64,000 nucleotides of DNA from Patescibacteria group bacterium. Its GTDB lineage: Bacteria > Patescibacteriota > Patescibacteriia > JAHIZJ01. Below, in pieces: positions 7,374-50,278 of the stretch. A program made the position numbers and the translations under genes. The stretch lies in the NCBI GenBank assembly GCA_041650335.1, contig JBAZLK010000004.1, positions 15,990 through 79,989 on the forward strand. The letters are read 5' to 3'. The number at the start of each line of letters is the position of its first letter. The stretch's first letter is position 1. The notes below the pieces were generated by a model. That model saw nothing but the letters and a program-made list of their open reading frames with translations, had not been told where the DNA came from and did not search any database.

Positions 7374-8855
7374 ATGAGCCGTTTAGATGAAAGCCGCGTT
7401 CTCCGGCTAGAAAAATTACACTCGCTTGAAAAAGCCGGCGTCCAGCCCTATCCGGCGAAGAGTGAACGGACGACAACGATTGTTCAAGCAATCAATAATT
7501 TTCAGGCATACGAGGACAGTAAAAAAATGATTACCGTGTCGGGACGCATCAGATCGGTTCGTCGACACGGCGGTTCGTCTTTTTATGATCTCGAAGACGG
7601 GACGGGCAGCTTCCAAATATTTTGTAAACTTGACCGTCTCGGCAAAGAGAAGTATGAACAGCTACGCGATTGTATTGATACGGGTGACATCGTTGAATTT
7701 ACCGGCACCGTATTTAAGACGAAGCAGGGGCAACCGACACTCGACGCGACGACGTACCATTTGTTAGCCAAGGCGTTGCGCGCAATGCCCGAGGCCCATT
7801 TCGGGCTCAAAGATGTCGAAACACGTCTCCGGAAGCGGTATCTCGATCTGGCGGTAAACCCAAAAACACGTGACCTTTTTGTTAAGAAATCCATCTTTTG
7901 GCAAGCGATCCGTTCGTTCATGATAAAGAATGGTTTTCTAGAAGTTGAAACACCAGTGCTGGAAAACGTACCGGGTGGCGCCGAGGCCGAGCCGTTTATC
8001 ACGCATCACAATACGTTGCATCGCGATCTCTTTTTACGCATTTCACTTGAACTGCCGTTAAAAAGACTCCTGGTTGGCGGCTATGAAAAAGTGTTTGAGA
8101 TCGGCCGCATTTTCCGGAACGAAGGCATTTCGACGGAACACCTCCAAGACTATACGCAACTGGAATTTTATTGGTCGTATGCCGACTATCATCAATTGAT
8201 GGAGTTTGTTCAGCGTTTGTATCGAGAGGTGATAAAGAAAGTGACGGGCTCGCTGGTCGTGGTGAACAACAATCAAACCATTGATTGGAAAAAGGCCTGG
8301 GTAAAATACGACTACTACAACGAATTTAAGAAGTATACCGGATGTAATCTCGAGAAGGCCACTGACGAAGAACTACGTCAATTTGCCAAAAAGCAAGGCA
8401 TTACCCTTGAAACGTATGTTGGCCGTGGCCGATTGATCGACGCAATTTACAAAAAATGCGTCCGGCCAAAACTGGTCCAGCCCGGTTTTCTCATGGATCC
8501 GCCGGCGGTCGTCGAACCATTGGCGAAACGACGCGTTGACGCGCCTGATCGCGTTCAACGGTTTCAGGTTGTCGCCTGGGGCACGGAGCTTGGCAAAGGA
8601 TTTTCCGAATTAAATGATCCGCTTGATCAGCGGAAACGTTTTGAAGAGCAGATGTCGCTCCGCGCGGCCGGTGATAAGGAGGCGCAACGCCTCGATGAAG
8701 ACTATTTAGAGGCGTTGGAATATGGAATGCCGCCAGCGGCCGGCTTTGGTCTATCGGAACGCCTTTTCGCCGTCATCATGGATAAGCCGGTTCGCGAAAC
8801 TGTTCTTTTTCCGCCGATGAAAGAATACGAAAAAGAAACACATGAATCGAACTGA
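7374..8855 (+). CDS. lysS: Lysyl-tRNA synthetase, class II
   Basis: N-terminal OB anticodon-binding domain, class II motifs (FRNEG, GGGLGIDRL-like GFGLSERLFAV), 493 aa. Confidence 0.9.
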   Translation: MSRLDESRVLRLEKLHSLEKAGVQPYPAKSERTTTIVQAINNFQAYEDSKKMITVSGRIRSVRRHGGSSFYDLEDGTGSFQIFCKLDRLGKEKYEQLRDCIDTGDIVEFTGTVFKTKQGQPTLDATTYHLLAKALRAMPEAHFGLKDVETRLRKRYLDLAVNPKTRDLFVKKSIFWQAIRSFMIKNGFLEVETPVLENVPGGAEAEPFITHHNTLHRDLFLRISLELPLKRLLVGGYEKVFEIGRIFRNEGISTEHLQDYTQLEFYWSYADYHQLMEFVQRLYREVIKKVTGSLVVVNNNQTIDWKKAWVKYDYYNEFKKYTGCNLEKATDEELRQFAKKQGITLETYVGRGRLIDAIYKKCVRPKLVQPGFLMDPPAVVEPLAKRRVDAPDRVQRFQVVAWGTELGKGFSELNDPLDQRKRFEEQMSLRAAGDKEAQRLDEDYLEALEYGMPPAAGFGLSERLFAVIMDKPVRETVLFPPMKEYEKETHESN

Positions 8856-29340: not shown

Positions 29341-30567
29341 TTATTCGTACCGGAGAGCTTCGATCGGATTTTTTAGCGCGGCCTTTGCCGCTGGGGCTAA
29401 ACCGAAGATGACCCCAACGGCCAGCGCAAATCCCATGGCAATAATGACTGATTGCGTGTCTACGATGATCGTTAAATCAAATTGCTTTTTCACGACAACG
29501 CTCGCAACCGTGGCGAGGCCAACGCCGATTGCCCCGCCGAACAGCGAGAGGACGATGGACTCCGTTAAAAACTGAAGCATGATATTCCCGCCGGTCGCGC
29601 CGACCGCTTTTCGCAGGCCGATCTCCCGCGTCCGTTCCATGACCGCAACCAGCATGATATTCATGATGCCAATCCCACCAACCAGCAAGGAGATCGAGGC
29701 CAAACCGACAATTGCCTTGGTAATGAGGCCGAGAATATTATCAACGACTTTTAACAGATCCTCCTGCGTAAATACGCTGGTATCGTTCGTGCCATGAAGC
29801 TCGTTTAATTTTTCCTGAACAACGCGCGATACAACCTTAACATCGGCGCTATCGTTCGCTTTCAGACCGATACGGAATATTTGTGTGTTTGGATTTACGC
29901 TTTTTGCCGTGGAATATGGGACAATGACCACCCCGATTTGCGTGCTGCTATTCCCAAAAAATGACGATTGTTGGGCCATTTCAAAAACACCGACGATCGT
30001 AAAGTTTTGTTTGCTTATCATTACCGTCCGACCGATGACAGCGGCCGGGTCGACGCCCGGAAAAAGCAGTTCTCGCGTGTAGTTTCCGATCACGATGACT
30101 TTTTCGTTTTGCTGGCTCTCGGTCTCGTTAAAAAATCGCCCAGTCACAATTTGATAGGTGTTTGTATATTGGAAAAAACTCGGATCCACCGCCATAATCA
30201 TGGCCCCATCCGCCTGTTTTCCATCAGCTGTTGGCACAGCGGAAAGCAATCCGATCCTGGTGGCATCGATTATGTCGGGCAGTTTTTTTAATTCCGAAAA
30301 ATCACTTTCGGTCAAGGTCGAGGCGCCGACCGAGGCACCGGGATTGAAACCGCCTTGGCTGGTCTGCACCTTGCCCGACAAGACAATGAGAACATTTGAG
30401 CCCAGCTGCGTGATCTCGCTAGTAATGTCTTTCTTTATCCCCTGCCCGAGTCCGATTAAAACGATTATCTGCGCCACGCCGATGATAATCCCGAGCATCG
30501 TTAAAAACGACCGTAACTTGCTTGAACGAAGGCTCAGAAAGGCATTTGAAATATTTTCACCGATCAT
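29341..30567 (-). CDS. ABC transporter permease, FtsX/MacB family
   Basis: N-terminal TM, large extracytoplasmic domain, C-terminal 3-TM FtsX-like module; overlaps ATPase gene by 4 nt. Confidence 0.75.
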   Translation of the reverse strand: MIGENISNAFLSLRSSKLRSFLTMLGIIIGVAQIIVLIGLGQGIKKDITSEITQLGSNVLIVLSGKVQTSQGGFNPGASVGASTLTESDFSELKKLPDIIDATRIGLLSAVPTADGKQADGAMIMAVDPSFFQYTNTYQIVTGRFFNETESQQNEKVIVIGNYTRELLFPGVDPAAVIGRTVMISKQNFTIVGVFEMAQQSSFFGNSSTQIGVVIVPYSTAKSVNPNTQIFRIGLKANDSADVKVVSRVVQEKLNELHGTNDTSVFTQEDLLKVVDNILGLITKAIVGLASISLLVGGIGIMNIMLVAVMERTREIGLRKAVGATGGNIMLQFLTESIVLSLFGGAIGVGLATVASVVVKKQFDLTIIVDTQSVIIAMGFALAVGVIFGLAPAAKAALKNPIEALRYE

Positions 30568-31280
30568 TTGGTAATCGTTATTTCCGTTAATTCTCCGTCC
30601 GACATCCGAAAATGTCGCTGGGCATATGCGTCAATAGTGGCGTCATGGGTAACAACAATTATTGTCCGTCCCTGCTGATTGAGCCATTGAAGGGCTGCCA
30701 TAATGTCCTTGCCGGATTTACTGTCCAGGTTTCCCGTCGGTTCGTCAGCCAGTATTATCGAGGGATCGTTTACCAGGGCTCGGGCGATAGCGACGCGCTG
30801 CTTCTCGCCGCCGGAGAGAAGCGCCGGTTTATAATTTCTCCTATTTTCCAATTTTACGGTGCGGAGCATCTCGTTAATACGATCAACCTGCTTCTTTCTC
30901 GGGTAACGACTGTAAATAAGAGGCAATTGAATGTTTTGAGCAACCGTCAGCCTAGCCAGCAGGTTAAATGTTTGAAAAATAAAGCCAATTTCCTTCCGGC
31001 GCAGGAATGGCAATTGTTTTTTCGGCACTTTACTGATCTCAATATTATTCAAAATATACCCTCCCGAATCGGGCACGTCGAGTAAACCGAGAACATTGAG
31101 CAAGGTGCTTTTCCCCGAGCCGGACGGCCCCATGATCGATATGAACTCTCCCCGCTCAATCGTAAAATGAACCCCTTTCAGGGCTGTGACCGGATTTGGC
31201 AAATCGGGTGAAAACGTTTTATTGATATTTTGGAGTGTGATCAACGGCATAGAATAATGGTCATAGTGTAGCAGAAACAA
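30564..31280 (-). CDS. ABC transporter ATP-binding protein (MacB/LolD-like)
   Basis: Walker [10 protein letters not shown], signature [15 protein letters not shown], Walker [13 protein letters not shown]-loop VTHD. Confidence 0.85.
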
Positions 31281-31339
31281 GCGTATTTATCAATAAATAC
31301 ACCGGAAAACCTTATTTCCGGCGTATTTTGCTATCTTTA

Positions 31340-31465
31340 TTAAATTGTTTCTTCGTCTGTGTCAGTATCTTCAGAATCATCTTTTTCATCGTCAGTCATT
31401 TCTTCATCATCCGGCTCTTCGGTATCATTCATATTTTGGTCGTCGTCATCCATTAATCGAAGCAT
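31340..31465 (-). CDS. Putative 41-aa extremely acidic small protein (MLRLMDDDDQNMNDTEEPDDEEMTDDEKDDSEDTDTDEETI)
   Basis: not in ORF track (<60 aa); strong SD AAGGAGGTG 6 nt upstream of ATG (plus-strand 31466-31480); lies between membrane protein gene and ABC ATPase gene on same strand; 22/41 residues Asp/Glu. Confidence 0.3.
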   Translation of the reverse strand: MLRLMDDDDQNMNDTEEPDDEEMTDDEKDDSEDTDTDEETI

Positions 31466-31490
31466 TCTCTTCACCTCCTTTTCTCAGCGA

Positions 31491-31994
31491 TTATTGTTTA
31501 TTACCCCGTAATATTTCACGTACATGCTGAGGCGACTGCGTTGAGAAAACATAAATTGCCCGGCTGTTTTTCATGCCGATCCGCAGACCTGAACCATTGA
31601 AAGCGGCGTAAATAGTCAGACTTTTTCTCGGTTGCCGGAAAAAACCATAATTAAAAAATCGTTTTGACGTGATTGTAACTATGTCGATTTCGGCGATTTC
31701 CTTGATATCTATTTTTTTCTTAAACAGACCAAAACCAAAATGCAGATATCCGTCTCGGATAATAACACTAAACTTCCAAAATGAGTGCGTGATAAGTAAA
31801 ACCGCTAGCCATTCAACAATCAAGAGGATCCGAAACCATGCCAGCTGGCCGTGATTTAACAACGTTATCCAGAATGCGATCACCAGCAGAATCGTCATGA
31901 CGCTGAAAAAGACCGTCAGAACACCACGATAGAATGGCTTCGCTTCGTAATAATTCATACTCGTATTGTACCAAAGACGCAAATGTCGGCGCAA
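31491..31994 (-). CDS. Hypothetical membrane protein (2 TM + bacterial PH-like C-terminal domain)
   Basis: two hydrophobic helices, followed by soluble ~80 aa domain; start codon uncertain (alternative ATG at 31958). Confidence 0.35.
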   Translation of the reverse strand: MRRHLRLWYNTSMNYYEAKPFYRGVLTVFFSVMTILLVIAFWITLLNHGQLAWFRILLIVEWLAVLLITHSFWKFSVIIRDGYLHFGFGLFKKKIDIKEIAEIDIVTITSKRFFNYGFFRQPRKSLTIYAAFNGSGLRIGMKNSRAIYVFSTQSPQHVREILRGNKQ

Positions 31995-40443: not shown

Positions 40444-41635
40444 ATATTGTAATGAGTTTCTGATAATATTTTTCGGCTAGGAATTGATCAGAAAACGCCG
40501 TTGCGTTCTGTCCCATTTCATCGACCCGGCTGATATTTTCTGTCACGAGTTGAATTTTCTTTCTCAGGTCGTTTGGCGAGCCGAGCTTGAAAGTATACCC
40601 CGTTTGGCCCTCGTGAACAAGCTCGGGAATACCGCCGATTTCAGTGGCGATAACGGGCTTGCCATGCTGATAAGCTTCTAATATTACGAGTGGGCAATTT
40701 TCATACCATTGCGACGGCACAATAACCGCCAATGATTTACTAACCAAATCTGATAATTCGTCGCCTTCGCGATAACCAAGGAACGCAACATTCTCCATCT
40801 TTTCGGTTTCAACGCGATGCTTCAGTTCTTTTTCTAATGGGCCGGTACCGACAATTTTTAGTTTTGACGGCAATCCCGCAAATGCCTCGAGTAATAGCGG
40901 CAGCCCCTTTTCTTCAGACAGTCGCCCGACGTATAAGAAGTAGTCGCCGGTGACTTTTTTCGTTGGCGCGGTCTCCGTTACAAAATTGTATATTTGCTCA
41001 ATCCGCTTGGCGCGTATCCCCCAGCGTTTCAGCTGTTCCGCCATGAACATACTCGGACAAATGAAAACATCGACATTTTTTTCGTACAGTTGTAGTGACT
41101 TATGAAGGTACATCTCAAGCGCAGACAAGGTCGAGGCGACGGTTGAATCTTTTATACATCGGTGCCGGATACACTTATAGTATGCACCACCAAACGCGCA
41201 TTCGCAGATCTTACCGTGGCAGAACAGGGCATAATTCGGCGACAGTAATTTATAATCATGAAGCGTCTGTACGATCGGAATATTTCGTTTCTTTATCGCT
41301 GATAATATTGAGGGGGATATTTGGTGGTAAATATTGTGGACGTGCACAAGGTCCGGTTTCTCAGCGTCCAGCAACCGACTGATTTTCCGGCGCGCCTCGA
41401 ACGAATACAGCATCCTACCGGCCGTGCGTAATCCTTGCCAATTCAAGGTGACGTTTTCGAAGTTAACGTTTGAAACAAAATACTTCGAATAGGCTGACGG
41501 GATGTTTTTCTCGTCGCGCATAGAAAAAACGACAACCTCGTGGCCATGCCGTTCGAGCATTTCTTTCAGCTCAAAGAAGTGTTTTTCGGCCCCACCCTTC
41601 AGGTAGTAAAACTTGTTGATCAGCAATATTTTCAT
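40418..41635 (-). CDS. Glycosyltransferase family 4
   Basis: GT-B fold signatures (LLYVGRLSEEKG, EGFGLV-like LVILEAYQHGKPVIAT); 405 aa. Confidence 0.75.
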   Translation of the reverse strand: MKILLINKFYYLKGGAEKHFFELKEMLERHGHEVVVFSMRDEKNIPSAYSKYFVSNVNFENVTLNWQGLRTAGRMLYSFEARRKISRLLDAEKPDLVHVHNIYHQISPSILSAIKKRNIPIVQTLHDYKLLSPNYALFCHGKICECAFGGAYYKCIRHRCIKDSTVASTLSALEMYLHKSLQLYEKNVDVFICPSMFMAEQLKRWGIRAKRIEQIYNFVTETAPTKKVTGDYFLYVGRLSEEKGLPLLLEAFAGLPSKLKIVGTGPLEKELKHRVETEKMENVAFLGYREGDELSDLVSKSLAVIVPSQWYENCPLVILEAYQHGKPVIATEIGGIPELVHEGQTGYTFKLGSPNDLRKKIQLVTENISRVDEMGQNATAFSDQFLAEKYYQKLITIYESLVGKK

Positions 41636-41794
41636 ATTGATATCATACCATTAGTAAAACAACACAGTATAGCAATTATTATACTTCTTGTCAATGCCTC
41701 CTGGCCATACGGATTGACAAAAAATCATTTCAGTGTATATTTATACGTCCGGTTACTGATAGCTTTTCGACAACCTTTGCCATGGGGGTATCCA

Positions 41795-43141
41795 ATGAGA
41801 GGAACCTGGGTATTTGTAGCTGCCTTTCTCATGCTTGCTGGAGTCTGCTGCGCGCCGACATCGCCGCCGCTGACTTCTCAGCAGCCCGCGACCGTGTCGA
41901 CCCAGTCAGTTACTCCTCTCAAGCTGGACTTTGGTTCGGTTTCACCAGGTTGCTCGAACTCGTTGAGCCTCAGGGTGAACAACCTGACGGCCAACCCGAT
42001 CGAGAGCTCGGTGAAGTCGTCGAACAAACACTTCTCGGTCAATCCGTCGGTTATCACTCTCCAGCCGTTCGAGTCTCGGCTGCTCACCGTTACGTACTCG
42101 CCTCTGAAGCACGGTCGGCACAAGTGCACGATCAGCTTCGGGGCGAGGAACCTGAAGACGGTGAAATGCCAAGGCCGCGGCGGCGAGAACAAACCGACCC
42201 GCGACAAGTACTACTGGCCGTTTTCGATCAGCAGCATCTGGAACACGCCGATCGGATCCGAGGCGCACTATGTCTCGGCCGGCCTGCGGCCCAGTCTCTG
42301 GATCGCGCCCGACAAGGAGTATCTGTACTTCGAAGGACGCGAGCGACTGCTCTACGGAAACGGGAAGTGGCCAGGAGAATGCAGCGGCAGCAACGAACTG
42401 GCCAAGATCATCGTGCCGGACGGTGCCTTGATCCCCGCGAACGACGGCAACACGACCTCGGCCTTTGTCTTGGCTGACGGAAACACCGTCTACCAGGCAA
42501 ATCCGACCGCCCGCTGTGATCCCACCGGCCCCGCCTATGCCGGCTGGAAAGCGCCCACCGTCAACTTGTATGGAGATGGGATCGGCGGCGGTCATGGCGG
42601 ATCGAGCCTGGCTACGCTCGGTGGTTCTATCCGCCTGGGCGAGCTATTTAGCCTCGCCCCGATTCGGCACGCGCTGAAGATCGACATCTGGATGGCCCGG
42701 CACGGATCGAAAACCCAGTCAGGCTTCCGCTGGCCGGCCGCGCGCGCCGATCATTACTACCTGCGGGAGTACGACAAGGAGGGCGTCGCCAAGCCGGCCG
42801 TACGCATGGGTTGTCTACTCGCCATTCCGTCCAACATGAACCTCGATTCGCTGGGGCTGAAAACCGACCCGGCAATGAAGATCGCCCAAGCGTTACGCGA
42901 TTACGGGGCCTACGTCGTCGACGACTCATACTGGGATGCCGTCAACCTGTGCGTTGAGAGCGGTGTCCCGGCCGAATTCGCGACTCGCTGCGGCTACGAC
43001 TTCAGCCAACAGTCCGGTGACTGGTACGACGACATGATGAAGCTCTTCCAGCTCCTTTGCGTCGTCGACAACAACACTCCGACAACCGTCGGTGGCGGCG
43101 GACTGCCGCTCGTACCGCCAGCACCGCCGATCGGCAACTGA
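41795..43141 (+). CDS. High-G+C secreted hypothetical protein (signal peptide + Ig-like N-domain + unknown C-domain)
   Basis: start refined to ATG 41795 (MRGTWVFVAAFLMLAGVCC signal/lipoprotein-like peptide) because the longer ORF-track start would overlap the upstream GT4 gene and the AT-rich promoter TTGACA(41725)-N16-TATATT; markedly higher G+C than flanks; spurious overlapping ORFs in all frames. Confidence 0.5.
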   Translation: MRGTWVFVAAFLMLAGVCCAPTSPPLTSQQPATVSTQSVTPLKLDFGSVSPGCSNSLSLRVNNLTANPIESSVKSSNKHFSVNPSVITLQPFESRLLTVTYSPLKHGRHKCTISFGARNLKTVKCQGRGGENKPTRDKYYWPFSISSIWNTPIGSEAHYVSAGLRPSLWIAPDKEYLYFEGRERLLYGNGKWPGECSGSNELAKIIVPDGALIPANDGNTTSAFVLADGNTVYQANPTARCDPTGPAYAGWKAPTVNLYGDGIGGGHGGSSLATLGGSIRLGELFSLAPIRHALKIDIWMARHGSKTQSGFRWPAARADHYYLREYDKEGVAKPAVRMGCLLAIPSNMNLDSLGLKTDPAMKIAQALRDYGAYVVDDSYWDAVNLCVESGVPAEFATRCGYDFSQQSGDWYDDMMKLFQLLCVVDNNTPTTVGGGGLPLVPPAPPIGN

Positions 43142-43166
43142 TCCCCTACTCGAACCTTCTGCCTAC

Positions 43167-43198
43167 GCCTGGCCACATTCGTGACCAGGCATTTTTTT
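43167..43198 (+). terminator. Intrinsic terminator after high-GC gene (GCCTGGCCAC-attc-GTGACCAGGC + T7)
   Basis: 10-bp stem with one bulge immediately followed by ATTTTTTT. Confidence 0.5.
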
Positions 43199-43238
43199 AT
43201 TAAAAAAGAGGCTTTGCCCTCTTACTATTTTATCATAA

Positions 43239-43898
43239 TTAAAACACAACCACGAAGTCCAACGGAATGAAGACCAATCGATTTTTTATTATCGTATAGT
43301 TTGTATACCCAGCCGCTTGCAATAATTTTCGCAGCGCACGTTCTGACAACAGATGCATATAGTCGCCGGCCGCCCATTTCCGATTTGTTCTTTTGATAAT
43401 CGCGTCGAACCACGGTTTTGGCAGATAGTGCAGTAATGGCAGACGCGTATGCACTTCAAACGGAAACATTCTATTAGGCGTGGTCAGATAACCATGCTTG
43501 GCCACGCGGCGTATTTCTTGTAAAAACACCAGTTGTTTCTGTGAATTACCAACGTGTTCGATTACCGCATTTGACCAACAAATATCGAACTGACGTTCGT
43601 CAAAAGGAAATTTTCCGCCACGATACGTTACGACGTTTACGGCCGGATAGCGATGCCTGAATTCGTCCGCCTGATCAACTCCGAGCGCGGTAATATTATG
43701 CTGATATGGAAAATGTTTTTCTAAATAATTATCGGTCTCGCTATACTCGCGTTCAGTGAAACCGACGTCGAGTATCTTTACATTCGGCGAAAGGGTGAAC
43801 GTTTTGATAAAAGCGCGCCACTTCCGGTTTCTATTGTATTCTGATATTTTGTAGGCTAGCGACATTTGATGATTTTCTAACTGCTTCTCAGTATACAC
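43239..43898 (-). CDS. Class I SAM-dependent methyltransferase
   Basis: KILDVGF motif I, ~219 aa, methyltransferase type 11-like. Confidence 0.65.
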   Translation of the reverse strand: MYTEKQLENHQMSLAYKISEYNRNRKWRAFIKTFTLSPNVKILDVGFTEREYSETDNYLEKHFPYQHNITALGVDQADEFRHRYPAVNVVTYRGGKFPFDERQFDICWSNAVIEHVGNSQKQLVFLQEIRRVAKHGYLTTPNRMFPFEVHTRLPLLHYLPKPWFDAIIKRTNRKWAAGDYMHLLSERALRKLLQAAGYTNYTIIKNRLVFIPLDFVVVF

Positions 43899-44011
43899 GC
43901 CACCGGTGGCGCTGACAATTATGTCGACACCCGCCTACCGTCCGATGATTGACAATAGCGTCAAAATTGTGTACCATATTCAGATTCCTATTTTTACGCT
44001 AAGATACATAC

Positions 44012-45211
44012 ATGCGCTTGGCATTTATCACGAACAGCCTTCCCTATCCGCCCGAAAAGGACGGGCAAGCCTTAATCGCCTATCATTTATTGACGCGCCT
44101 GTCTCAACGGCACCAGATCCGATTGCTTTGTTTTGGCGACAAACACGATCTCCCGAATATCAAGCGTTTTACCGACCTCGGCATCAGTGTGAAGCTTTTT
44201 GACCGCCCGAAGCGCCTGCTTCCCTTCTACTATCTCTCGCCGAAGTCGCGTTCAATGGCCTGGTTCCAATACCAGCTGTACACGCCCGAAATGATCTGGG
44301 AAATCGAAACGCTCGACGGTCGCCCCGATGTCGATCTCGTCTATTTCCACTCCCCGTTCATTTCGGCCTACCTGAAACATATCTCACACACACCCGTTGT
44401 TTTTGGTTATATTGACGCGTATTCCTCGTGGTATGAACAATTCCGGGCCATCACGAAAAATCCGTTAAAAAAAATCCATTATCGCTTCGAGCGTGAAAAA
44501 GCTATCGCTCTTGAGCAACACGTCCTGCCGACATTGTCGGAAACTATTGTTGTCTCAGCTGTTGACCGCAAAACCATCCAGCAGCTCGCCCCGACGGCCA
44601 ACGTATCCGTTATTGCCAACGGCGTGGATCTAAAATTCTTCCGTCCCTCGGAATCACAACCTGATAACGAAACGATTGTCTTCACCGGGACCATGAATTT
44701 TCCGCCGAACGTCCGGGCCGTCCTCGATTTCAATAAGAATGTCTGGCCGTTGCTCAAGCAAGCGCACCCGCGAGTCCAATGGTATATCGTCGGAAAGAAT
44801 CCGACCCTCGATATTTTCGAGCTTCAGTCGCTCGATCCACAAATCACCGTTACCGATTATGTAAAGGACATCCGCTGTTATTTATGGCGCTCGGCTGTGT
44901 ATGTCTCGGCCATAACGCTTGGTGCCGGCTTTAAAAACAAAATTGTCGAGGCGATGGCCTGCGGCAAGGCGATCGTCGCCACGCCAACCAGCATCGCTGG
45001 ATTACCGATCTCTGACGGCGAGAATATCTTCGTGGCAAATTCTTCCCATGAAATGTATGAAAAAATACACCGGCTCTTTGAGTCGTCCGATCTACGTCAG
45101 AAGGTTGAACGCCAAGCCCGGATCTTTGCCGAGCAGTATGATTGGAACATAGCTATTCAAAAATACGAATCAATTTTTATTAAACATGCCCGTCCCAATG
45201 CAGAGGTATAG
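44012..45211 (+). CDS. Glycosyltransferase family 4
   Basis: GT-B pattern, C-terminal VYVSAITLGAGFKNKIVEAMACGKAIVAT motif; 399 aa. Confidence 0.7.
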   Translation: MRLAFITNSLPYPPEKDGQALIAYHLLTRLSQRHQIRLLCFGDKHDLPNIKRFTDLGISVKLFDRPKRLLPFYYLSPKSRSMAWFQYQLYTPEMIWEIETLDGRPDVDLVYFHSPFISAYLKHISHTPVVFGYIDAYSSWYEQFRAITKNPLKKIHYRFEREKAIALEQHVLPTLSETIVVSAVDRKTIQQLAPTANVSVIANGVDLKFFRPSESQPDNETIVFTGTMNFPPNVRAVLDFNKNVWPLLKQAHPRVQWYIVGKNPTLDIFELQSLDPQITVTDYVKDIRCYLWRSAVYVSAITLGAGFKNKIVEAMACGKAIVATPTSIAGLPISDGENIFVANSSHEMYEKIHRLFESSDLRQKVERQARIFAEQYDWNIAIQKYESIFIKHARPNAEV

Positions 45212-46583
45212 CTTTCAACGAATCGGACAAACTCTTTTTCTGACGGTGTTGATCGCGGCGCCGCTCTTATATGCCATTACGCGGCATCCGACCTACGAAA
45301 ATATCTTACAAATTTTGATTTTAACGGTATTATTACCGATATTTTTAATTGACTATGAGCTGGGCTTTCTTGCTCTCATCGTCCTTCGCCCAGCCATGGA
45401 CACATTCAGCCAGATTGATTTTCTCAACGTCGGACAATTTTCCCTGAATCTGTCATCCGTGGTCGGTTTGCTGGTCATCGCCTGGATACTATTTTACCTT
45501 ATTCGCCGTCAAGAACGCGTTTGGAAACAGCCGTTGTTTTGGCCCTTTTTTGTCTTTGTCATTATCAGCGTCATCTCATTATTCTACACCCCGTCACTCT
45601 CCGCCACGATCCGGGAAGTCGTCAGGATCGCCAGCATATTCTTTATCTATTTAATGGCTGGCGCCATGGTCGTCAATAGAAAAGGCGCCGCTCGCTTTCT
45701 GAAGGCCATCGCGCTTTCTAGCATCATACCCATAACGGTTGCTTTGTATCAATTTTTCACGCAAACGGGATTGAGCTTTGCCGGATTGAATAACCGCGTC
45801 TACGGCACGCTGGTTCATCCCAATGCCTTTGCTACCTATTTACTCATTATTTTCATTCTCGGATTCGGTTATTTTTTATCCCATCGTCAAGAGGGAATAA
45901 AAAAACACGGTTGGCTCATCATCGGCCTACTTCTTACAATCGGTCTACTGATCTTGACTTATACGCGCGGCGCCTGGATTTGTTTCGGAATTATTGTTTT
46001 CATCATGGGCCTGAAATACTATAAGAAAGTGTTGGTGGCGCTTTTTGGCCTGGCTGTGTTCCTGTTGCTTTTTGGTCCAACGCTTAACCGTTTCATCTTT
46101 ACGAATTTTGACTATGATTTTTCCCGCAATCCTGTCATCCAGCGTCTGACGGAAAAGAATTCCGACGCCGAAAGCTCGATCGATTGGCGCTTCAAGGTCT
46201 GGACGGAAATGAGCCGTAAAATCGCCGACCGGCCGTATCTGGGTTATGGCTTTGGCGCGTTTCCGGTGATCCGCCAGCAATTCGTGAAGGGTATGTACGA
46301 GAGCACCGAGGCTCATAACGACTATCTCCGCCTGGTGATCGAGCTTGGCCTGGTGGGCATACTGGCGTACTTGGTAATTTTAGGTAAGCTTGTTTACAAT
46401 ATTTTCCAACATTTACGAGCCAAGCTTCCAGCGACGGATAAAGCCTGGCTGTATTCCGGCTTATCGCTGATCGCGGCCGTTCTGGTGATGAGCATTTCGG
46501 ACAATGTTCTGCAGGGAACGGCGAATATGTGGCTTTTCTGGGCGGGCATGGCCGTATTGCAAAAACTTCCGACATTAAAGTAG
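45186..46583 (+). CDS. O-antigen ligase / Wzy-like polymerase family polytopic membrane protein
   Basis: ~10-12 TM helices, periplasmic loop with YTRGAW...H motif region typical of Wzy_C/O-antigen ligase family. Confidence 0.6.
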   Translation: MPVPMQRYSFQRIGQTLFLTVLIAAPLLYAITRHPTYENILQILILTVLLPIFLIDYELGFLALIVLRPAMDTFSQIDFLNVGQFSLNLSSVVGLLVIAWILFYLIRRQERVWKQPLFWPFFVFVIISVISLFYTPSLSATIREVVRIASIFFIYLMAGAMVVNRKGAARFLKAIALSSIIPITVALYQFFTQTGLSFAGLNNRVYGTLVHPNAFATYLLIIFILGFGYFLSHRQEGIKKHGWLIIGLLLTIGLLILTYTRGAWICFGIIVFIMGLKYYKKVLVALFGLAVFLLLFGPTLNRFIFTNFDYDFSRNPVIQRLTEKNSDAESSIDWRFKVWTEMSRKIADRPYLGYGFGAFPVIRQQFVKGMYESTEAHNDYLRLVIELGLVGILAYLVILGKLVYNIFQHLRAKLPATDKAWLYSGLSLIAAVLVMSISDNVLQGTANMWLFWAGMAVLQKLPTLK

Positions 46584-46606
46584 TCTTCTTTTTACGCACT
46601 AAACGG

Positions 46607-46635
46607 TTGCCCGAACATTTGGGCAATATTTTATT
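46607..46635 (+). terminator. Intrinsic terminator after O-antigen-ligase-like gene (TTGCCC-gaacattt-GGGCAA + T-rich tail)
   Basis: 6-bp stem, 8-nt loop, followed by TATTTTATT. Confidence 0.45.
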
Positions 46636-46646
46636 ACAAAGAAAAA

Positions 46647-46683
46647 GAGCCCGTTCGTCTCGAGATGAGACTACTAGGGCTCT
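46647..46683 (-). terminator. GC-rich intrinsic terminator of the high-GC minus-strand operon
   Basis: AGAGCCC...GGGCTCT 7-bp outer stem with inner GTCTC/GAGAC stem; on minus strand followed by CUCUUUUUCUUU. Confidence 0.5.
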
Positions 46684-46714
46684 AAAGAGCTGCCGCTTGG
46701 TAGCGGCCTACTGA

Positions 46715-47275
46715 CTACTGCTTCCCGACCCAGGTCCAGGTGCCGTCGGCGTTCCAGATGGGCCGATACCCGCCGAACTGCTGGCCCTTGTCGTTCTTGG
46801 CCCGACTCGGGTGGTTCCAGGTCCACGGCCAGGCCGTGACGCCGTCGGCCGAGGGTCGGCACCAGAGGTAGCACCCCTCGTCCTGGCACTTGCATTCCTT
46901 CAGCGGGATGACGAACTCGACCGCCTGGCTGCCATTGCCCACGTTCGCCACCGTGGGATCGGTTTCGACGCAGAGCAGGCCGCTCAGTCCGACCGTGTAG
47001 GGGCCGGGAACGGGGGTCTGGCCCGACCATTCGATGGCCTTCGGAAAGCTGACGAAGATGCGGATGTGCCACCCGTCAGCAGCCAGATACGAGTCGATCG
47101 GGTTCTTGTCCGACAGGGTCGGACGCGCCGGAGCCGCGGGAGCCGGGGTGACCGCCGCCTTCGCGCTGTCAGCCGGCGGCGGAGCCACCTGGCTGTCCTT
47201 GATCTCGGCCAGCGCGGGCTGGACGAGCGCGAACGTGACAACCGCGACCATGAGCACGAGCATGAGCTTCTTCAT
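46715..47275 (-). CDS. High-G+C secreted hypothetical protein, Cys-containing (186 aa)
   Basis: start refined to ATG at 47275 (MKKLMLVLMVAVVTFALVQPALA signal peptide) with SD GGAGGAATGGAGAA upstream; Ala/Pro-rich linker then domain with CxC...C...C (KECKCQDEGCYLWC). Confidence 0.45.
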   Translation of the reverse strand: MKKLMLVLMVAVVTFALVQPALAEIKDSQVAPPPADSAKAAVTPAPAAPARPTLSDKNPIDSYLAADGWHIRIFVSFPKAIEWSGQTPVPGPYTVGLSGLLCVETDPTVANVGNGSQAVEFVIPLKECKCQDEGCYLWCRPSADGVTAWPWTWNHPSRAKNDKGQQFGGYRPIWNADGTWTWVGKQ

Positions 47276-47333
47276 TTCTCCATTCCTCCGTGGGTTTGAG
47301 TTTCCGAACTTGCTACTAGGTCGTGGCGGGAAC

Positions 47334-48221
47334 TCAGGGGTTCCCGCCGATGTGGATGCCGTAGAGCCGTTCATCTCCGTCCCTGGGGTTCTTGAACTCC
47401 CCGGAGCCGGTGATCGCGTACTCGAAGGCACAGTACCCATTACCCAGATCGTGGATACACTTCAGGAGCGTCGCCTGTTCGAAGTTGTCTTCCGGACCGA
47501 AGTAGACGCCGGCCCGGAGTTCTTCGCCGGTGAGCTTCTGAAGCCTCAGGTAGCCCTTGGACGCCTTCTTGACCATCACCTTCTCGTTCTCGGTGGTCCA
47601 TCGCCCGCTGACGAACTCCATTGCGTGAGCACGATCGCGGAAGCCGGTCCATGTCCCCAGCCATTCGACCGGCTGGGTAGGATCGGCGGGCCAGTTTCGC
47701 CCGTCCGGCAGTCCGGTACCGGTGTACCAGATCTGCGCCGAAATCAGGGAATCAGGTCCGTCTGGGGACACCGCGATCGCCCCGTTCTCGAGGTAGACCG
47801 AGAAGGAACGACAGGTCTCCCACTCATTGGAGCCCGCCGATCCCTGAATCCGAGTGCCGCCGACCGAGATGTCGACCATCCGGTAGTAGCGGCTGTCGGC
47901 CGGATTCTTGGCCCAGAACCAGACTGGGATGCCCTTCTCGTTGCCCCACGACCACCAGAGGTAGTCCCCCTCGACGTGGCCGTCGGCATAGGTGGCAAAC
48001 GGCATCCTGATGTTCCGATCCTGTTCGTATCCAGGCACGACCGGACCGCTGATATACACCGGCCAGCCGTCCTCGGCCACCGCGCACGTCGCGGAAAAGC
48101 CGAGCGTCATCTGTTCCTGCTCGGACAGCCCGGGCGCGGTCATCGTCCACTCGTCACGGCTGCAGCCCAGGGGCATGATCGCCACCAGGACCAGCAGTGC
48201 CACCAACACATACCTGCGCAT
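47334..48221 (-). CDS. High-G+C hypothetical lipoprotein/secreted protein (295 aa)
   Basis: start refined to ATG 48221 (MRRYVLVALLVLVAIMPLGC - signal peptide ending in Cys) with SD GGAGGAAACCGAAG upstream; Trp/Gly-rich beta-type sequence. Confidence 0.45.
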   Translation of the reverse strand: MRRYVLVALLVLVAIMPLGCSRDEWTMTAPGLSEQEQMTLGFSATCAVAEDGWPVYISGPVVPGYEQDRNIRMPFATYADGHVEGDYLWWSWGNEKGIPVWFWAKNPADSRYYRMVDISVGGTRIQGSAGSNEWETCRSFSVYLENGAIAVSPDGPDSLISAQIWYTGTGLPDGRNWPADPTQPVEWLGTWTGFRDRAHAMEFVSGRWTTENEKVMVKKASKGYLRLQKLTGEELRAGVYFGPEDNFEQATLLKCIHDLGNGYCAFEYAITGSGEFKNPRDGDERLYGIHIGGNP

Positions 48222-48244
48222 CTTCGGTTTCCTCCTTCTTCCTT

Positions 48245-50068
48245 CTACCAGCTGTGGTCGAGGCTGATCCCCGCCCACTGCCGGTCCGTGTGGTACACCT
48301 TGCCGTTGACCAGATCCCGGTCGACGGCATCATTCAGGTACTTGAAGTTCCCCTTCAGACGCCACCACCGGTTGATCCGATACTCAATTCCGATCCCGGG
48401 GCCACGCCAGTCGAATGACCAGCTCGGGTTGTCGTACGACCAGGAGTCGTACGAGGCGTAGACGATGATGTAGTGGTTGAACTTGTACCCGATCCGTCCC
48501 TCGAACACCTGCATGGTGTCGGCCGGGAAGGACAGGGTCTGGTTGTCGAAGTGCCGTGACTGTCCGCGGCGGTACTGGACGTCGTACGACGCCCGGAAAT
48601 ACAACGGGTGCGGTTCAATCGAGAAGCTCCCCCCGATCTCGCGATCAAGGTTTGTTCCGCGCTTGAACATCGCCTCGTAGTACCCCAGCTTCGGGGTAAT
48701 GCCGAGCACTCTCGCGTATCCTCCGTAACCATCGAAGTACCGTGCGTCCTCGCGCGCCTTGATGGTCGTGGGCGAAATCTGCCGGTAGTTGATGAACTCG
48801 CGCTGGCCGGCCAGATACCAGGCGCCGGCTTCAAAGCCCGTACGCCAGGCACCCGCCTCGTCGCCGAGGATCCACCCCCGGCCGCCGAGCCGGTAATCGC
48901 CGGACACGTGATTCTTGTCCAGCGACGCCTGCTCGATTCGGATGACAGTCGAGAGATCGCGTAGGCGACCCCAGCCGTCGTAGCCGGAAATCCGTGGCAG
49001 CCACTCCAGTCCTCCCAGGAACGAATGCTGTCGGTCAAGGTTACCCTTCCGGTCTTTCCCGCCCTGGGAATACCGGTAGTCGAGCCACCAGACGCCGCCC
49101 GAGACGAACTCGTGAGACACCTCAGGCTCTTGGGCGTAGAACGGCCCTTCCACCTTGGGCTGTCGAGCCGACTCAGGCGGCGACACCGTCACCTGGCTTT
49201 CGGCTTCGTCCACGAACGCTCGCCTGACATAGGCGGCGTTGCCGCAGACGACGAACCGATACAGGTGGTACCGGTAACCCTCGTAGTCCACAAAGGGATA
49301 TTCGAGGGCAACGGTCCGGTCGACCGACTGTCGCGACTTCGGGTCTTTCCAGAAGCAGGCCGTCCTGCCCCAGGAAATGTTCTTGCCAAAACACAGGCCG
49401 TCGACGATGAGCGGTGACGCCTCAGTTGAGTACATCCAGACACTGTCCGGCGTACTCGCTTCAACGAGGCTCACCCACTCCGCCCGAACCTGGTCCGGTA
49501 CCTTGAAGGACTTGATCTGGTCCTTGAGCGGCGTCCGAGCCGGATCACCGCCGAGGAATTCCCAGCGACGGATGACCTGTTCGGGCTTCTGCGTGAAGAG
49601 ATGCTCGCCCGGCAGGACATACCGTCGATCAAGACCATTCCAGGCTCGAAGAGTATCAGCCGGAACGCCCAGCTCCTTCGAGAGGGCTTTCCAGCCTTCA
49701 CCCGGCTTTACGACTCTGGTGGGTGGCAACCGGATGGGTTCCGGCTGCTTTTCCGAGCGTTTCAGTTCGAGCTTGGTATCCTGGACGGCGACCCAGTTGG
49801 TTGAGTCGCAGTAGGCCAAGACCCGGTACTTCACCCAGAAGGCGTCCTTCCCCGTCTGTTCGACGCAGAAGTCCGTGGCCTTGGGCACCTGTATCCTGAC
49901 CACGCGGTCGTTCACCAGAACGCCCACGTCAACCGTGTTCCTGCCATTCGGCAAGCTCACGGCCTTCAGGTTGATAACGGTGCCCACCGGGGGCTGCGTG
50001 CACTGAGCCAGTGCATTGGTCGAGAAGACCAGCGCGCAGACGAACAACAGAACCGTGAACTGCTTCAT
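48245..50068 (-). CDS. High-G+C secreted protein with LysM-like domain and C-terminal beta-barrel-like region (outer-membrane-protein-like)
   Basis: signal peptide MKQFTVLLFVCALVFSTNALA; LysM-like segment VKPGEGWKALSKELGVPADTLRAWNGLDRRYVLPGEHLF; C-terminal ~300 aa with alternating hydrophobic/aromatic pattern rich in Y/W/G/R ending in ...ISLDHSW (terminal aromatic); SD GGAGGATTCGGTC before ATG. Confidence 0.5.
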   Translation of the reverse strand: MKQFTVLLFVCALVFSTNALAQCTQPPVGTVINLKAVSLPNGRNTVDVGVLVNDRVVRIQVPKATDFCVEQTGKDAFWVKYRVLAYCDSTNWVAVQDTKLELKRSEKQPEPIRLPPTRVVKPGEGWKALSKELGVPADTLRAWNGLDRRYVLPGEHLFTQKPEQVIRRWEFLGGDPARTPLKDQIKSFKVPDQVRAEWVSLVEASTPDSVWMYSTEASPLIVDGLCFGKNISWGRTACFWKDPKSRQSVDRTVALEYPFVDYEGYRYHLYRFVVCGNAAYVRRAFVDEAESQVTVSPPESARQPKVEGPFYAQEPEVSHEFVSGGVWWLDYRYSQGGKDRKGNLDRQHSFLGGLEWLPRISGYDGWGRLRDLSTVIRIEQASLDKNHVSGDYRLGGRGWILGDEAGAWRTGFEAGAWYLAGQREFINYRQISPTTIKAREDARYFDGYGGYARVLGITPKLGYYEAMFKRGTNLDREIGGSFSIEPHPLYFRASYDVQYRRGQSRHFDNQTLSFPADTMQVFEGRIGYKFNHYIIVYASYDSWSYDNPSWSFDWRGPGIGIEYRINRWWRLKGNFKYLNDAVDRDLVNGKVYHTDRQWAGISLDHSW

Positions 50069-50278
50069 GACCGAATCCTCCCCTTTTCAAACCGTGTGAC
50101 TGTCTATGCCGTTTGGTTAGCCGTCTATCTGTAGAACCAGTGACTTGGATCCGTAGATGAAATGTCAATTTGCATCAGTGAGCTTGCGTTGTCGCTTCCT
50201 ACCGCGTGCAAGAGAGCTCACACGTCCAGTACGATTCGCATCGTCCTAAACGTGGCAAGACCTCTTGCGAGGTTTGCC

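Follow-up and report, generated by a model that had tools for sequence, protein, structure and literature searches.

A hyper-acidic small open reading frame with a strong Shine-Dalgarno site beside clpB is very probably a microprotein gene of Patescibacteria

We analysed a 64,000-nucleotide stretch (64 kb; hereafter the window) of contig JBAZLK010000004.1 from a Patescibacteria group bacterium, and specifically a small open reading frame (sORF) on its minus strand that encodes a hyper-acidic peptide of 41 residues. Judged by comparison with related loci, this sORF is very probably a real microprotein gene of a Patescibacteria (candidate phyla radiation, CPR) lineage, conserved and under purifying selection. 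The first-pass annotation of this DNA, made from the letters alone, had proposed a genuine small gene at this position, and the proposal holds: six other genomes share the frame, the Shine-Dalgarno (SD) site and the acidic character, and the substitutions between copies show purifying selection. A check for loss of the frame in the homologous regions likewise failed to overturn the gene, since the frame is retained in all six.

A hyper-acidic peptide behind a strong ribosome-binding site

The sORF product is MLRLMDDDDQNMNDTEEPDDEEMTDDEKDDSEDTDTDEETI, read from ATG 31465 to a TAA stop at 31342-31340 that is directly followed by a second TAA. Asp and Glu account for 22 of its 41 residues (54%), Arg and Lys occur once each, and Trp, Cys and Gly are missing altogether; length, strand, acidic content and the single Arg and Lys are all as the first-pass annotation had described. 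Residues 6-9 of the peptide are DDDD, preceded by LRLM, and neither a signal sequence nor a double-glycine leader motif was found in it. Among the 965 window ORFs of at least 20 aa, the sORF alone exceeds an Asp+Glu fraction of 0.31 (0.50-0.54), and a composition that is unique in such a set is more than chance.

The sequence AAGGAGGTGA lies at 31480-31471 of the minus strand, with a spacer of 5 nt to the sORF start when counted from this 10-mer and of 6 nt when counted from the 9-mer of the first-pass annotation. The strong SD with its 6-nt spacer, as well as the 25-nt gap to the upstream membrane-protein gene, were thus correctly read. It had also been considered that this SD might serve a differently placed start of the downstream ATPase gene, but that start lies more than 200 nt further on, so the SD is not the ATPase ribosome-binding site.

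The exact 10-mer occurs once in the whole window. When 50 window gene starts were compared, the match to the anti-SD was 10 nt for the sORF and at most 5 nt for the others, 34 of the 50 starts had, within 22 nt, no match to the anti-SD complement that reached 4 nt, and GGAGG preceded a single start other than that of the sORF; the starts used for this count are longest-ORF starts, which are sometimes wrong, and the exact fractions are accordingly soft. Homology fixes the start of clpB, and this gene clearly has no SD. In the sORF-bearing related loci (10-14.6 kb; L002, L012, L013, L015, L016, L017 and L021 of Table 2 were scanned), GGAGGTG is found once per locus on either strand, namely at the sORF, and the ribosome-binding site AAGGAGGTG is common to all sORF copies. 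From these patterns, SD-independent and leaderless initiation seem to be the norm in the lineage, with one perfect SD kept for the peptide. We infer that the strong SD was selected so that an internal cistron is initiated efficiently and independently. Being unusually strong in an SD-poor genome, it also suggests that more of the peptide than of the upstream-encoded membrane protein is likely produced.

Two side observations concern SD usage. GGAGGTG is likewise found just once in the more distant Patescibacteria locus L022, in front of a small ORF (7714-7890, minus strand) encoding a 52-aa hydrophobic and basic protein convergent with clpB, which hints that these genomes may keep strong SDs for small ORFs. 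In the window itself, the region from about 41500 to 50100 has a G+C content of 0.53-0.54 compared with 0.46-0.49 elsewhere, long ORFs that overlap on both strands, and three ORFs led by an SD (GGAGG at 47289, 48235 and 50081, minus strand) whose N-termini resemble signal peptides or those of lipoproteins. The region may be of foreign origin or mark a join in the assembly.

Table 1 Features of the window around the sORF and, in the last rows, of related loci.
Feature	Position	Strand	Description
Hyper-acidic sORF (very probable microprotein gene)	31340-31465	minus	41 codons plus TAA; net charge -20
Shine-Dalgarno site AAAGGAGGTGA	31471-31481	minus	5 nt 5' of the sORF ATG
Basic membrane protein, 155 aa	31491-31958	minus	two N-terminal helices and a beta-rich domain, putatively pleckstrin homology (PH)-like
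Intrinsic-terminator-like hairpin	31295-31328	minus	14-bp stem AAAUACGCCGGAAA/UUUCCGGUGUAUUU, U-rich tail, 12 nt after the sORF stop
Promoter-like TTGATA-17-(TG)TACACT	31265-31293	minus	between the terminator and the ABC ATPase gene
Extended -10-like element TGGTACAAT	31965-31973	minus	ends 6 nt 5' of the membrane-protein ATG; no SD
clpB, 877 aa	32004-34637	minus	directly 5' of the membrane-protein gene
CIRCE operator TTAGCACTC-N9-AAGTGCTAA	34681-34707	minus	overlaps a TTGACA -35 element upstream of clpB
ABC ATPase (31250-30564) and MacB_PCD/FtsX permease (30567-29341)	29341-31250	minus	Pfam matches; neighbours only
82-94 aa ORF, L013	5623-5907
82-94 aa ORF, L014	5656-5910
82-94 aa ORF, L015	5651-5899
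82-94 aa ORF, L017	3434-3700

Conservation of the peptide and selection on its frame

Since peptides this short are missing from protein collections, relatives were located through the neighbouring genes, namely those for the membrane protein and ClpB. A word-indexed search with a two-peptide alignment against 5.8 billion proteins gave no candidates in a collection that does not hold the exact peptides themselves, and a phmmer search with the peptide against 1.84 billion representatives gave 0 matches and is uninformative for the same reason. The exact peptides are also absent from a collection of 15 billion sequences, no family in Pfam, NCBIfam or PADLOC covers any peptide variant, and no description of such a peptide was found in literature searches.

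Through the neighbours, we found six further genomes with a positional homologue of the sORF, with ClpB identities of 67-97% (Table 2), which together with the window gives seven sORF-bearing genomes, all of them metagenome assemblies. The named closest ClpB matches are metagenome-assembled genomes of Patescibacteria (CPR), including Magasanikbacteria. One record, the GTDB species-representative contig L012 (CAYJKP010000001.1, 454460-466921), is labelled 'uncultured Gammaproteobacteria bacterium' and carries a 92%-identical locus; the label looks wrong because all named close ClpB relatives are Patescibacteria. The first-pass annotation had called the sORF unannotated, which is true of L013, L016 and L017 (NCBI assemblies), where the homologues are uncalled, and not of the window, L002-L011, L015 and L021, where the gene caller of the contig collection does call it.

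Table 2 Related clpB loci, with the order of the genes that follow clpB and the acidic ORFs they carry.
Locus	ClpB identity	Gene order	Acidic ORF
L002/L012	97%	as in the window	43-aa acidic ORF, MLRLNDDDDQSMNEEEEKEQKDEETETDKDEDSEDTDADEETI
L013, L016, L017	75-77%	as in the window	27-32 aa ORFs 3' of the membrane-protein gene; in listing order (M)IYIDDEGQNTEATPETPATPETPETPETPAE, (M)IYIDDEGQNPEGDQQPTEETPATPAE, (M)INYIDDEGQTMPEGGAETPTPTEETPAE
L015	76%	without the membrane protein and without the ABC pair	41 aa, 33 nt 3' of clpB, VVNEMLLADDAADEKDDQLDEELDENDEENDEDEDEDDETV
L021	67%	clpB, membrane protein, GT2; no ABC pair	48-aa ORF, MIMLIDGDGDNDSDVEVTTEVTTEVETDGGSESNNDDAESGTDDSTVA
L014/L018	76%	flavodoxin, ydhR-like and DUF5655 genes inserted; ABC pair present	no acidic ORF, no membrane protein
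L020, L022	67-68%	not syntenic	no acidic ORF

The peptides of the family are 27-48 aa long with net charges of -8 to -23. All seven share an N-terminal motif, M, hydrophobic-x-hydrophobic(-hydrophobic), D-D-[DE]-[DG]-Q-[NST], with a weaker fit in L015 and L021. The C-terminus is short and conserved, reading DEETI or DDETV in one branch and (E)TPAE in the other. In L013, L016 and L017, the N-termini have DDEG after IYI and then continue in TPE repeats. Where the copies differ in length, the frame is preserved. The sORF tail of L013 (9210-9275) is a 9-nt tandem repeat, ACYCCAGAR (Thr-Pro-Glu), expanded relative to L016 and L017, which indicates that the peptide length changes by in-frame repeat slippage.

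Comparison of the window with L002 shows nearly saturated synonymous sites in every gene (dS 0.6-1.1). For the sORF, we obtained a pN of 0.198 and a pS of 0.595, corresponding to an omega of 0.19 (Fisher p = 2e-4, with counts rounded from totals), and its differences fall 7/7/18 on the three codon positions. The last 12 codons contain 5 synonymous changes and 1 non-synonymous change, and the sole indel is 6 nt long and in frame, while the middle of the peptide changes quickly with its charge retained. Among L013, L016 and L017, the peptides are 71-80% identical, compared with 37-42% for the adjoining membrane protein; the first 10 codons have 0/1/7 variable sites at codon positions 1/2/3, and the codons of the final T-P-A-E differ at third positions only. 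L013, L016 and L017 themselves are not purine-rich, indicating that protein sequence and charge, rather than RNA composition, are what is kept. Both ends of the peptide are thus under sequence-specific constraint, which points to defined contacts.

These data bear on whether the sORF could be a chance open frame in a purine-rich spacer beside a fortuitous SD-like sequence. Low complexity leaves antisense frames open too, and gene callers skipped the homologues in three NCBI assemblies, as such an accident would lead one to expect. However, genomes with saturated synonymous sites still share the frame, the SD and the spacing, the differences sit mainly at third positions, the window-L002 indel preserves the frame, and in L013, L016 and L017 the motif is kept at the protein level although these three relatives are not purine-rich. 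We consider a chance frame extremely improbable.

The transcription unit beside clpB

On the minus strand, the gene order is a family 4 glycosyltransferase (GT4), the CIRCE (controlling inverted repeat of chaperone expression) operator, clpB, the 155-aa membrane protein, the sORF, a hairpin, a promoter-like site, an ATP-binding cassette (ABC) ATPase, a MacB/FtsX permease and a family 2 glycosyltransferase (GT2). A methyltransferase gene stands on the opposite strand beside GT4, and fmt, def and priA are convergent, following GT2. The sORF ATG comes 25 nt after the upstream stop (31491), and there is no hairpin in this gap.

The hairpin that follows the sORF has a predicted energy of -18.8 kcal/mol on its own, and the enclosing 91-nt segment folds at -22.4 kcal/mol (z = -3.4). 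All six relatives have their own, non-homologous hairpin with a U run after the sORF stop (-21 to -26 kcal/mol), and in every case it lies within 12-30 nt of that stop. These hairpins were found by folding, as a simple terminator scan misses most of them, either because the A-tract pairs with the U-tract or because the loop exceeds 8 nt. Promoter-like sites equivalent to that of the window follow the terminator in L015 and L016 and, by eye, in L002, L013 and L017.

Upstream, the geometry of a -10-like hexamer, 6 nt and then the ATG of the membrane protein (TGnTACAAT in the window) is also present in L002, L013, L016 and L017, making five lineages. This arrangement suggests that the membrane protein and the sORF are carried on a leaderless bicistronic mRNA. 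The spacer between clpB and the membrane-protein gene has only a weak hairpin (-8 kcal/mol), and in the absence of a strong terminator after clpB, heat-shock read-through probably adds to the expression of the unit. The CIRCE operator has one mismatch to the consensus TTAGCACTC-N9-GAGTGCTAA and is the sole such site in the window, and each of the 11 related loci examined has a CIRCE directly 5' of clpB. The L015 sORF comes 33 nt after clpB with nothing in between and, on this layout, is certainly co-transcribed with it. The acidic ORF of L021 sits between GT4 and the clpB promoter, upstream of CIRCE and behind its own terminator. Taken together, it is strongly supported by the comparison of loci that the sORF is the last cistron of a membrane-protein and sORF unit beside a CIRCE-controlled clpB.

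An ORF of 82-94 aa without a Pfam match is found directly 5' of the clpB promoter in several relatives (Table 1), and in the window the opposite-strand methyltransferase takes its place. In addition, no Rfam family reached its gathering threshold and no tRNAs were found in the 64 kb window; the sub-threshold Rfam matches near the ORF are chance ones, such as C/D-box snoRNA models on the GAUGA-rich frame.

The neighbouring membrane protein

The membrane protein of the window has an isoelectric point (pI) of 10.2 and a net charge of +12. In the four lineages with an adjacent sORF, the pI is 9.5-10.2 and the soluble part carries +6 to +12. It lies directly 5' of the sORF in five of the seven sORF genomes and in the same locus in a sixth (L021), and the homologues of L013, L016 and L017, with 37-42% identity, occupy the same position.

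No Pfam, NCBIfam or PADLOC family matched the protein above threshold, and sub-threshold matches to bPH_4 and bPH_5 were present in three and two of five homologues, respectively. An AlphaFold2 model of low confidence (mean predicted local distance difference test score, pLDDT, 49) has two helices, seven strands and a C-terminal helix. Model and matches are compatible with a membrane-anchored bacterial PH-like domain.

One close relative is 92% identical and occurs on at least 16 contigs and in one GTDB species representative. A word-indexed search with the membrane protein returned one homologue cluster only, a scan of genome contigs found only the 92% relative, a scan of metagenome contigs with a five-sequence profile found only an already known contig, and a profile search matched PDB sequences only spuriously, at designed repeat proteins. 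As far as these searches reach, the membrane protein is lineage-restricted.

Relation to the ABC transporter genes

The first-pass annotation had placed the sORF inside an ABC-exporter operon and had offered a cargo or leader peptide of that exporter as one possible role. The operon placement is not supported, because the ATPase gene is set apart from the ORF by both the hairpin and the promoter-like site (31328-31295 and 31293-31265, respectively). A terminator followed by a promoter-like site recurs in relatives, and the distributions of the sORF and the ABC pair are uncoupled: L015 and L021 have the acidic ORF without the ABC pair, and L014 and L018 have the ABC pair without the acidic ORF. 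The distance of 60 nt to the ATPase gene is right for a TTG start at 31280 and wrong for the ATG at 31250, which is the choice of the gene caller, is common to all homologues and gives 89 nt. That ATG has no SD and comes 14 nt after the -10-like TACACT, so the ATPase mRNA may have a very short leader or none.

A role as cargo or leader peptide finds no support either, given that the peptide has no signal sequence or double-glycine leader and the transporter is of the MacB/FtsX type without a peptidase domain; the transporter proteins match only ABC_tran and MacB_PCD plus FtsX. No ATP-grasp, LanM, radical-SAM or similar gene is adjacent to the sORF. We also rejected a precursor of a ribosomally synthesized and post-translationally modified peptide (RiPP) or bacteriocin handled by a peptidase-containing ABC transporter, since the peptide has no Gly, no C39 domain is present and no modifying enzymes are nearby. 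In all, the sORF is probably not part of the ABC system.

Possible functions of the peptide

The overall reading we favour is that of a polyanionic microprotein, encoded by the last cistron beside clpB, that serves as a partner of the PH-like membrane protein; we put it forward tentatively, as having somewhat less than an even chance of being right. The more specific mechanism, in which the peptide acts on the PH-like domain of the adjacent membrane protein, is possible but doubtful. According to this proposal, the signal-less, disordered polyanion would stay in the cytoplasm, made in excess over the membrane protein by virtue of its strong SD. It would dock by its N-terminal motif and engage a basic partner by charge, with the conserved termini making specific contacts. 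The co-transcribed membrane protein would supply the likeliest partner, its cytoplasmic PH-like domain (+6 to +12), whose interaction with anionic ligands or lipids the peptide may mask or tune. A comparable arrangement has been described for Phafin2, whose polyD motif is thought to bind its own basic PH domain and so block anionic-lipid binding (PMC9324892). The likeness lies in a C-terminal Asp/Glu run with Ser/Thr there and an acidic peptide beside a basic PH-like domain here; Phafin2 differs in being eukaryotic and in acting in cis within one polypeptide, whereas two gene products are involved here, so the analogy is one of mechanism only.

Several observations weigh against the favoured reading. 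L015 has the peptide and no membrane protein in the 14.6 kb seen, and in L021 the two are separated by clpB, from which it follows that neither pairing, with clpB or with the membrane protein, is obligatory. The charges of partner and peptide show no co-variation. The sample of genomes is small, and the homology of the L015 and L021 peptides rests on position, on the SD-terminator layout and on a short low-complexity motif.

The peptide might alternatively be a general stress polyanion, co-induced with ClpB, that acts without a specific partner as a disordered shield or nucleic-acid-like decoy for basic or aggregation-prone proteins. The CIRCE site 5' of clpB in all loci without a strong terminator before the sORF unit, the co-transcription of the L015 sORF with clpB, which is certain on its layout, and the fast-evolving middle with its charge kept all agree with this. 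Highly charged, disordered Hero proteins are known to protect clients from aggregation (PMC7067378). Extreme charge, low complexity and fast sequence change with kept charge are shared with them, the stress context here being clpB. The sORF peptides differ from Hero proteins, which are considerably longer, in being bacterial and only 27-48 aa long and in having conserved terminal motifs that suggest a specific partner. Sequence constraint at both peptide ends, the candidate homologue of L021 upstream of CIRCE behind its own terminator, and the promoter-like element owned by the unit all speak against a general polyanion. So does the lack of any fusion link, as an acidic C-terminal tail was found in 0 of 120 ClpB relatives. 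We regard such a stress polyanion as unlikely.

Another possibility is that translation itself is the function, as in an MgtL-like sensor of intrinsic ribosome destabilization (IRD), in which Asp/Glu would abort ribosomes at low Mg2+ or low ribosome stability and thereby alter termination or mRNA stability. IRD is caused by negative runs with intermittent prolines, has its strongest effect close to the N-terminus and is weakened when bulky residues precede the run, and MgtL senses Mg2+ through it (bioRxiv 10.1101/2021.02.02.429294). Both branches of the family fall into this composition class (DDDD at 6-9 after LRLM; DDEG and TPE repeats after IYI), a perfect SD, in a genome poor in such sites, would ensure that ribosomes load, and the hairpin always comes 12-30 nt past the stop. 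Like MgtL-type leaders, the sORF is a very short ORF with Asp/Glu(/Pro) within the first 5-6 residues and bulky residues before them; unlike those leaders, it stands at the 3' end of its unit and has a constrained C-terminus. At the C-terminus, synonymous changes leave the protein sequence conserved, which a pure abort sensor would not need. A ribosome terminating at the stop codon would, given its footprint, not reach the hairpin core, which is some 19 nt or more away from the first base of that codon. The downstream gene varies between genomes (ATPase, GT2 or clpB), and promoter-like sites follow the terminator. No strong or conserved pairing that competes with the terminator was found by a crude script, which mislocated the hairpin in three loci, and an attenuator was dropped on that result. 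A pure IRD sensor is in our view quite unlikely. A related proposal is that the SD, the very short ORF, which reaches Asp/Glu(/Pro) after 4-5 bulky residues, and the terminator form a cassette that senses ribosome state or Mg2+. Abort on fragile ribosomes would change the occupancy beside the hairpin and in this way set downstream read-through or clpB-linked mRNA stability; this, too, is unlikely. In a variant of it, the peptide could be functional with its yield gated by IRD.

Export offers the closest defensible form of the earlier cargo idea: the PH-like membrane protein, with or without the ABC transporter, would export the unprocessed peptide, which would bind cations or cationic molecules on the cell or host surface. 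Leaderless bacteriocin clusters encode unprocessed peptides of 40-50 aa, an ABC transporter and two PH proteins, DdE and the larger DdF. DdE, of 141 aa, spans the membrane with two helices and has one bacterial PH domain in the cytosol, and both proteins are needed for enterocin DD14 export (PMC8657885). The window has a similar trio of gene types in a row. As in the leaderless (class II) clusters of enterocin DD14, L50, aureocin A53 and lacticin Q, a peptide of about 40 aa stands beside a two-helix PH-type protein of about 140-155 aa with an ABC transporter nearby, and the peptide (41 aa, without signal peptide, double-glycine motif or Cys) is predicted to remain unprocessed. Leaderless bacteriocin peptides are cationic, amphipathic and helical, however, the opposite of a peptide with a net charge of -20 that looks disordered. 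Instead of a YdbS-like and YdbT-like PHb2 pair, there is a single small PH-like protein with sub-threshold bPH_4/bPH_5 rather than bPH_2 matches, and no YdbT-like or DdF-like partner gene was found in any locus examined. The MacB/FtsX-type ABC pair lies behind a terminator and a promoter-like site and is not co-inherited, as L014, L015, L018 and L021 show. Export of this kind is quite unlikely as well. Lastly, with a net charge of -20 in 41 residues, the peptide has a charge density comparable to that of nucleic acid and might, as the first-pass annotation had suggested beside divalent-cation binding and an anti-sigma-like role, be a nucleic-acid mimic or a regulator of a DNA- or RNA-binding protein (RNA polymerase, HU or a sigma factor), much as the acidic disordered tail of the RNA polymerase delta subunit acts in Firmicutes. 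Known DNA mimics, such as Ocr, ArdA and DMP-type proteins, are larger and folded, with surface carboxylates that form a DNA-like array and bind a DNA-binding protein, and the neighbouring genes include no nucleic-acid-binding protein; we judge this role highly improbable.

Significance

Disordered acidic proteins of small size are already known, as are small ORFs at the ends of operons. What is new is a synteny-defined, clade-restricted family paired with an apparently leaderless PH-like membrane-protein gene beside CIRCE-clpB, as well as its standing as the only gene with a strong SD in a genome poor in them. Should the peptide turn out to be a regulator of the PH-like protein or a ribosome-destabilisation sensor, this would be the first function for two uncharacterised families beside the core disaggregase gene of the clade, and if neither is true, a clade-restricted gene remains. 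Small ORFs are mostly missing from annotation and protein databases, so that such families escape ordinary homology search; here, a microprotein family of at most 48 aa could be recovered from synteny alone, and selection on it demonstrated, in uncultured CPR bacteria. A lone perfect SD in an SD-poor, partly leaderless genome could show how reduced organisms grade expression within an operon.

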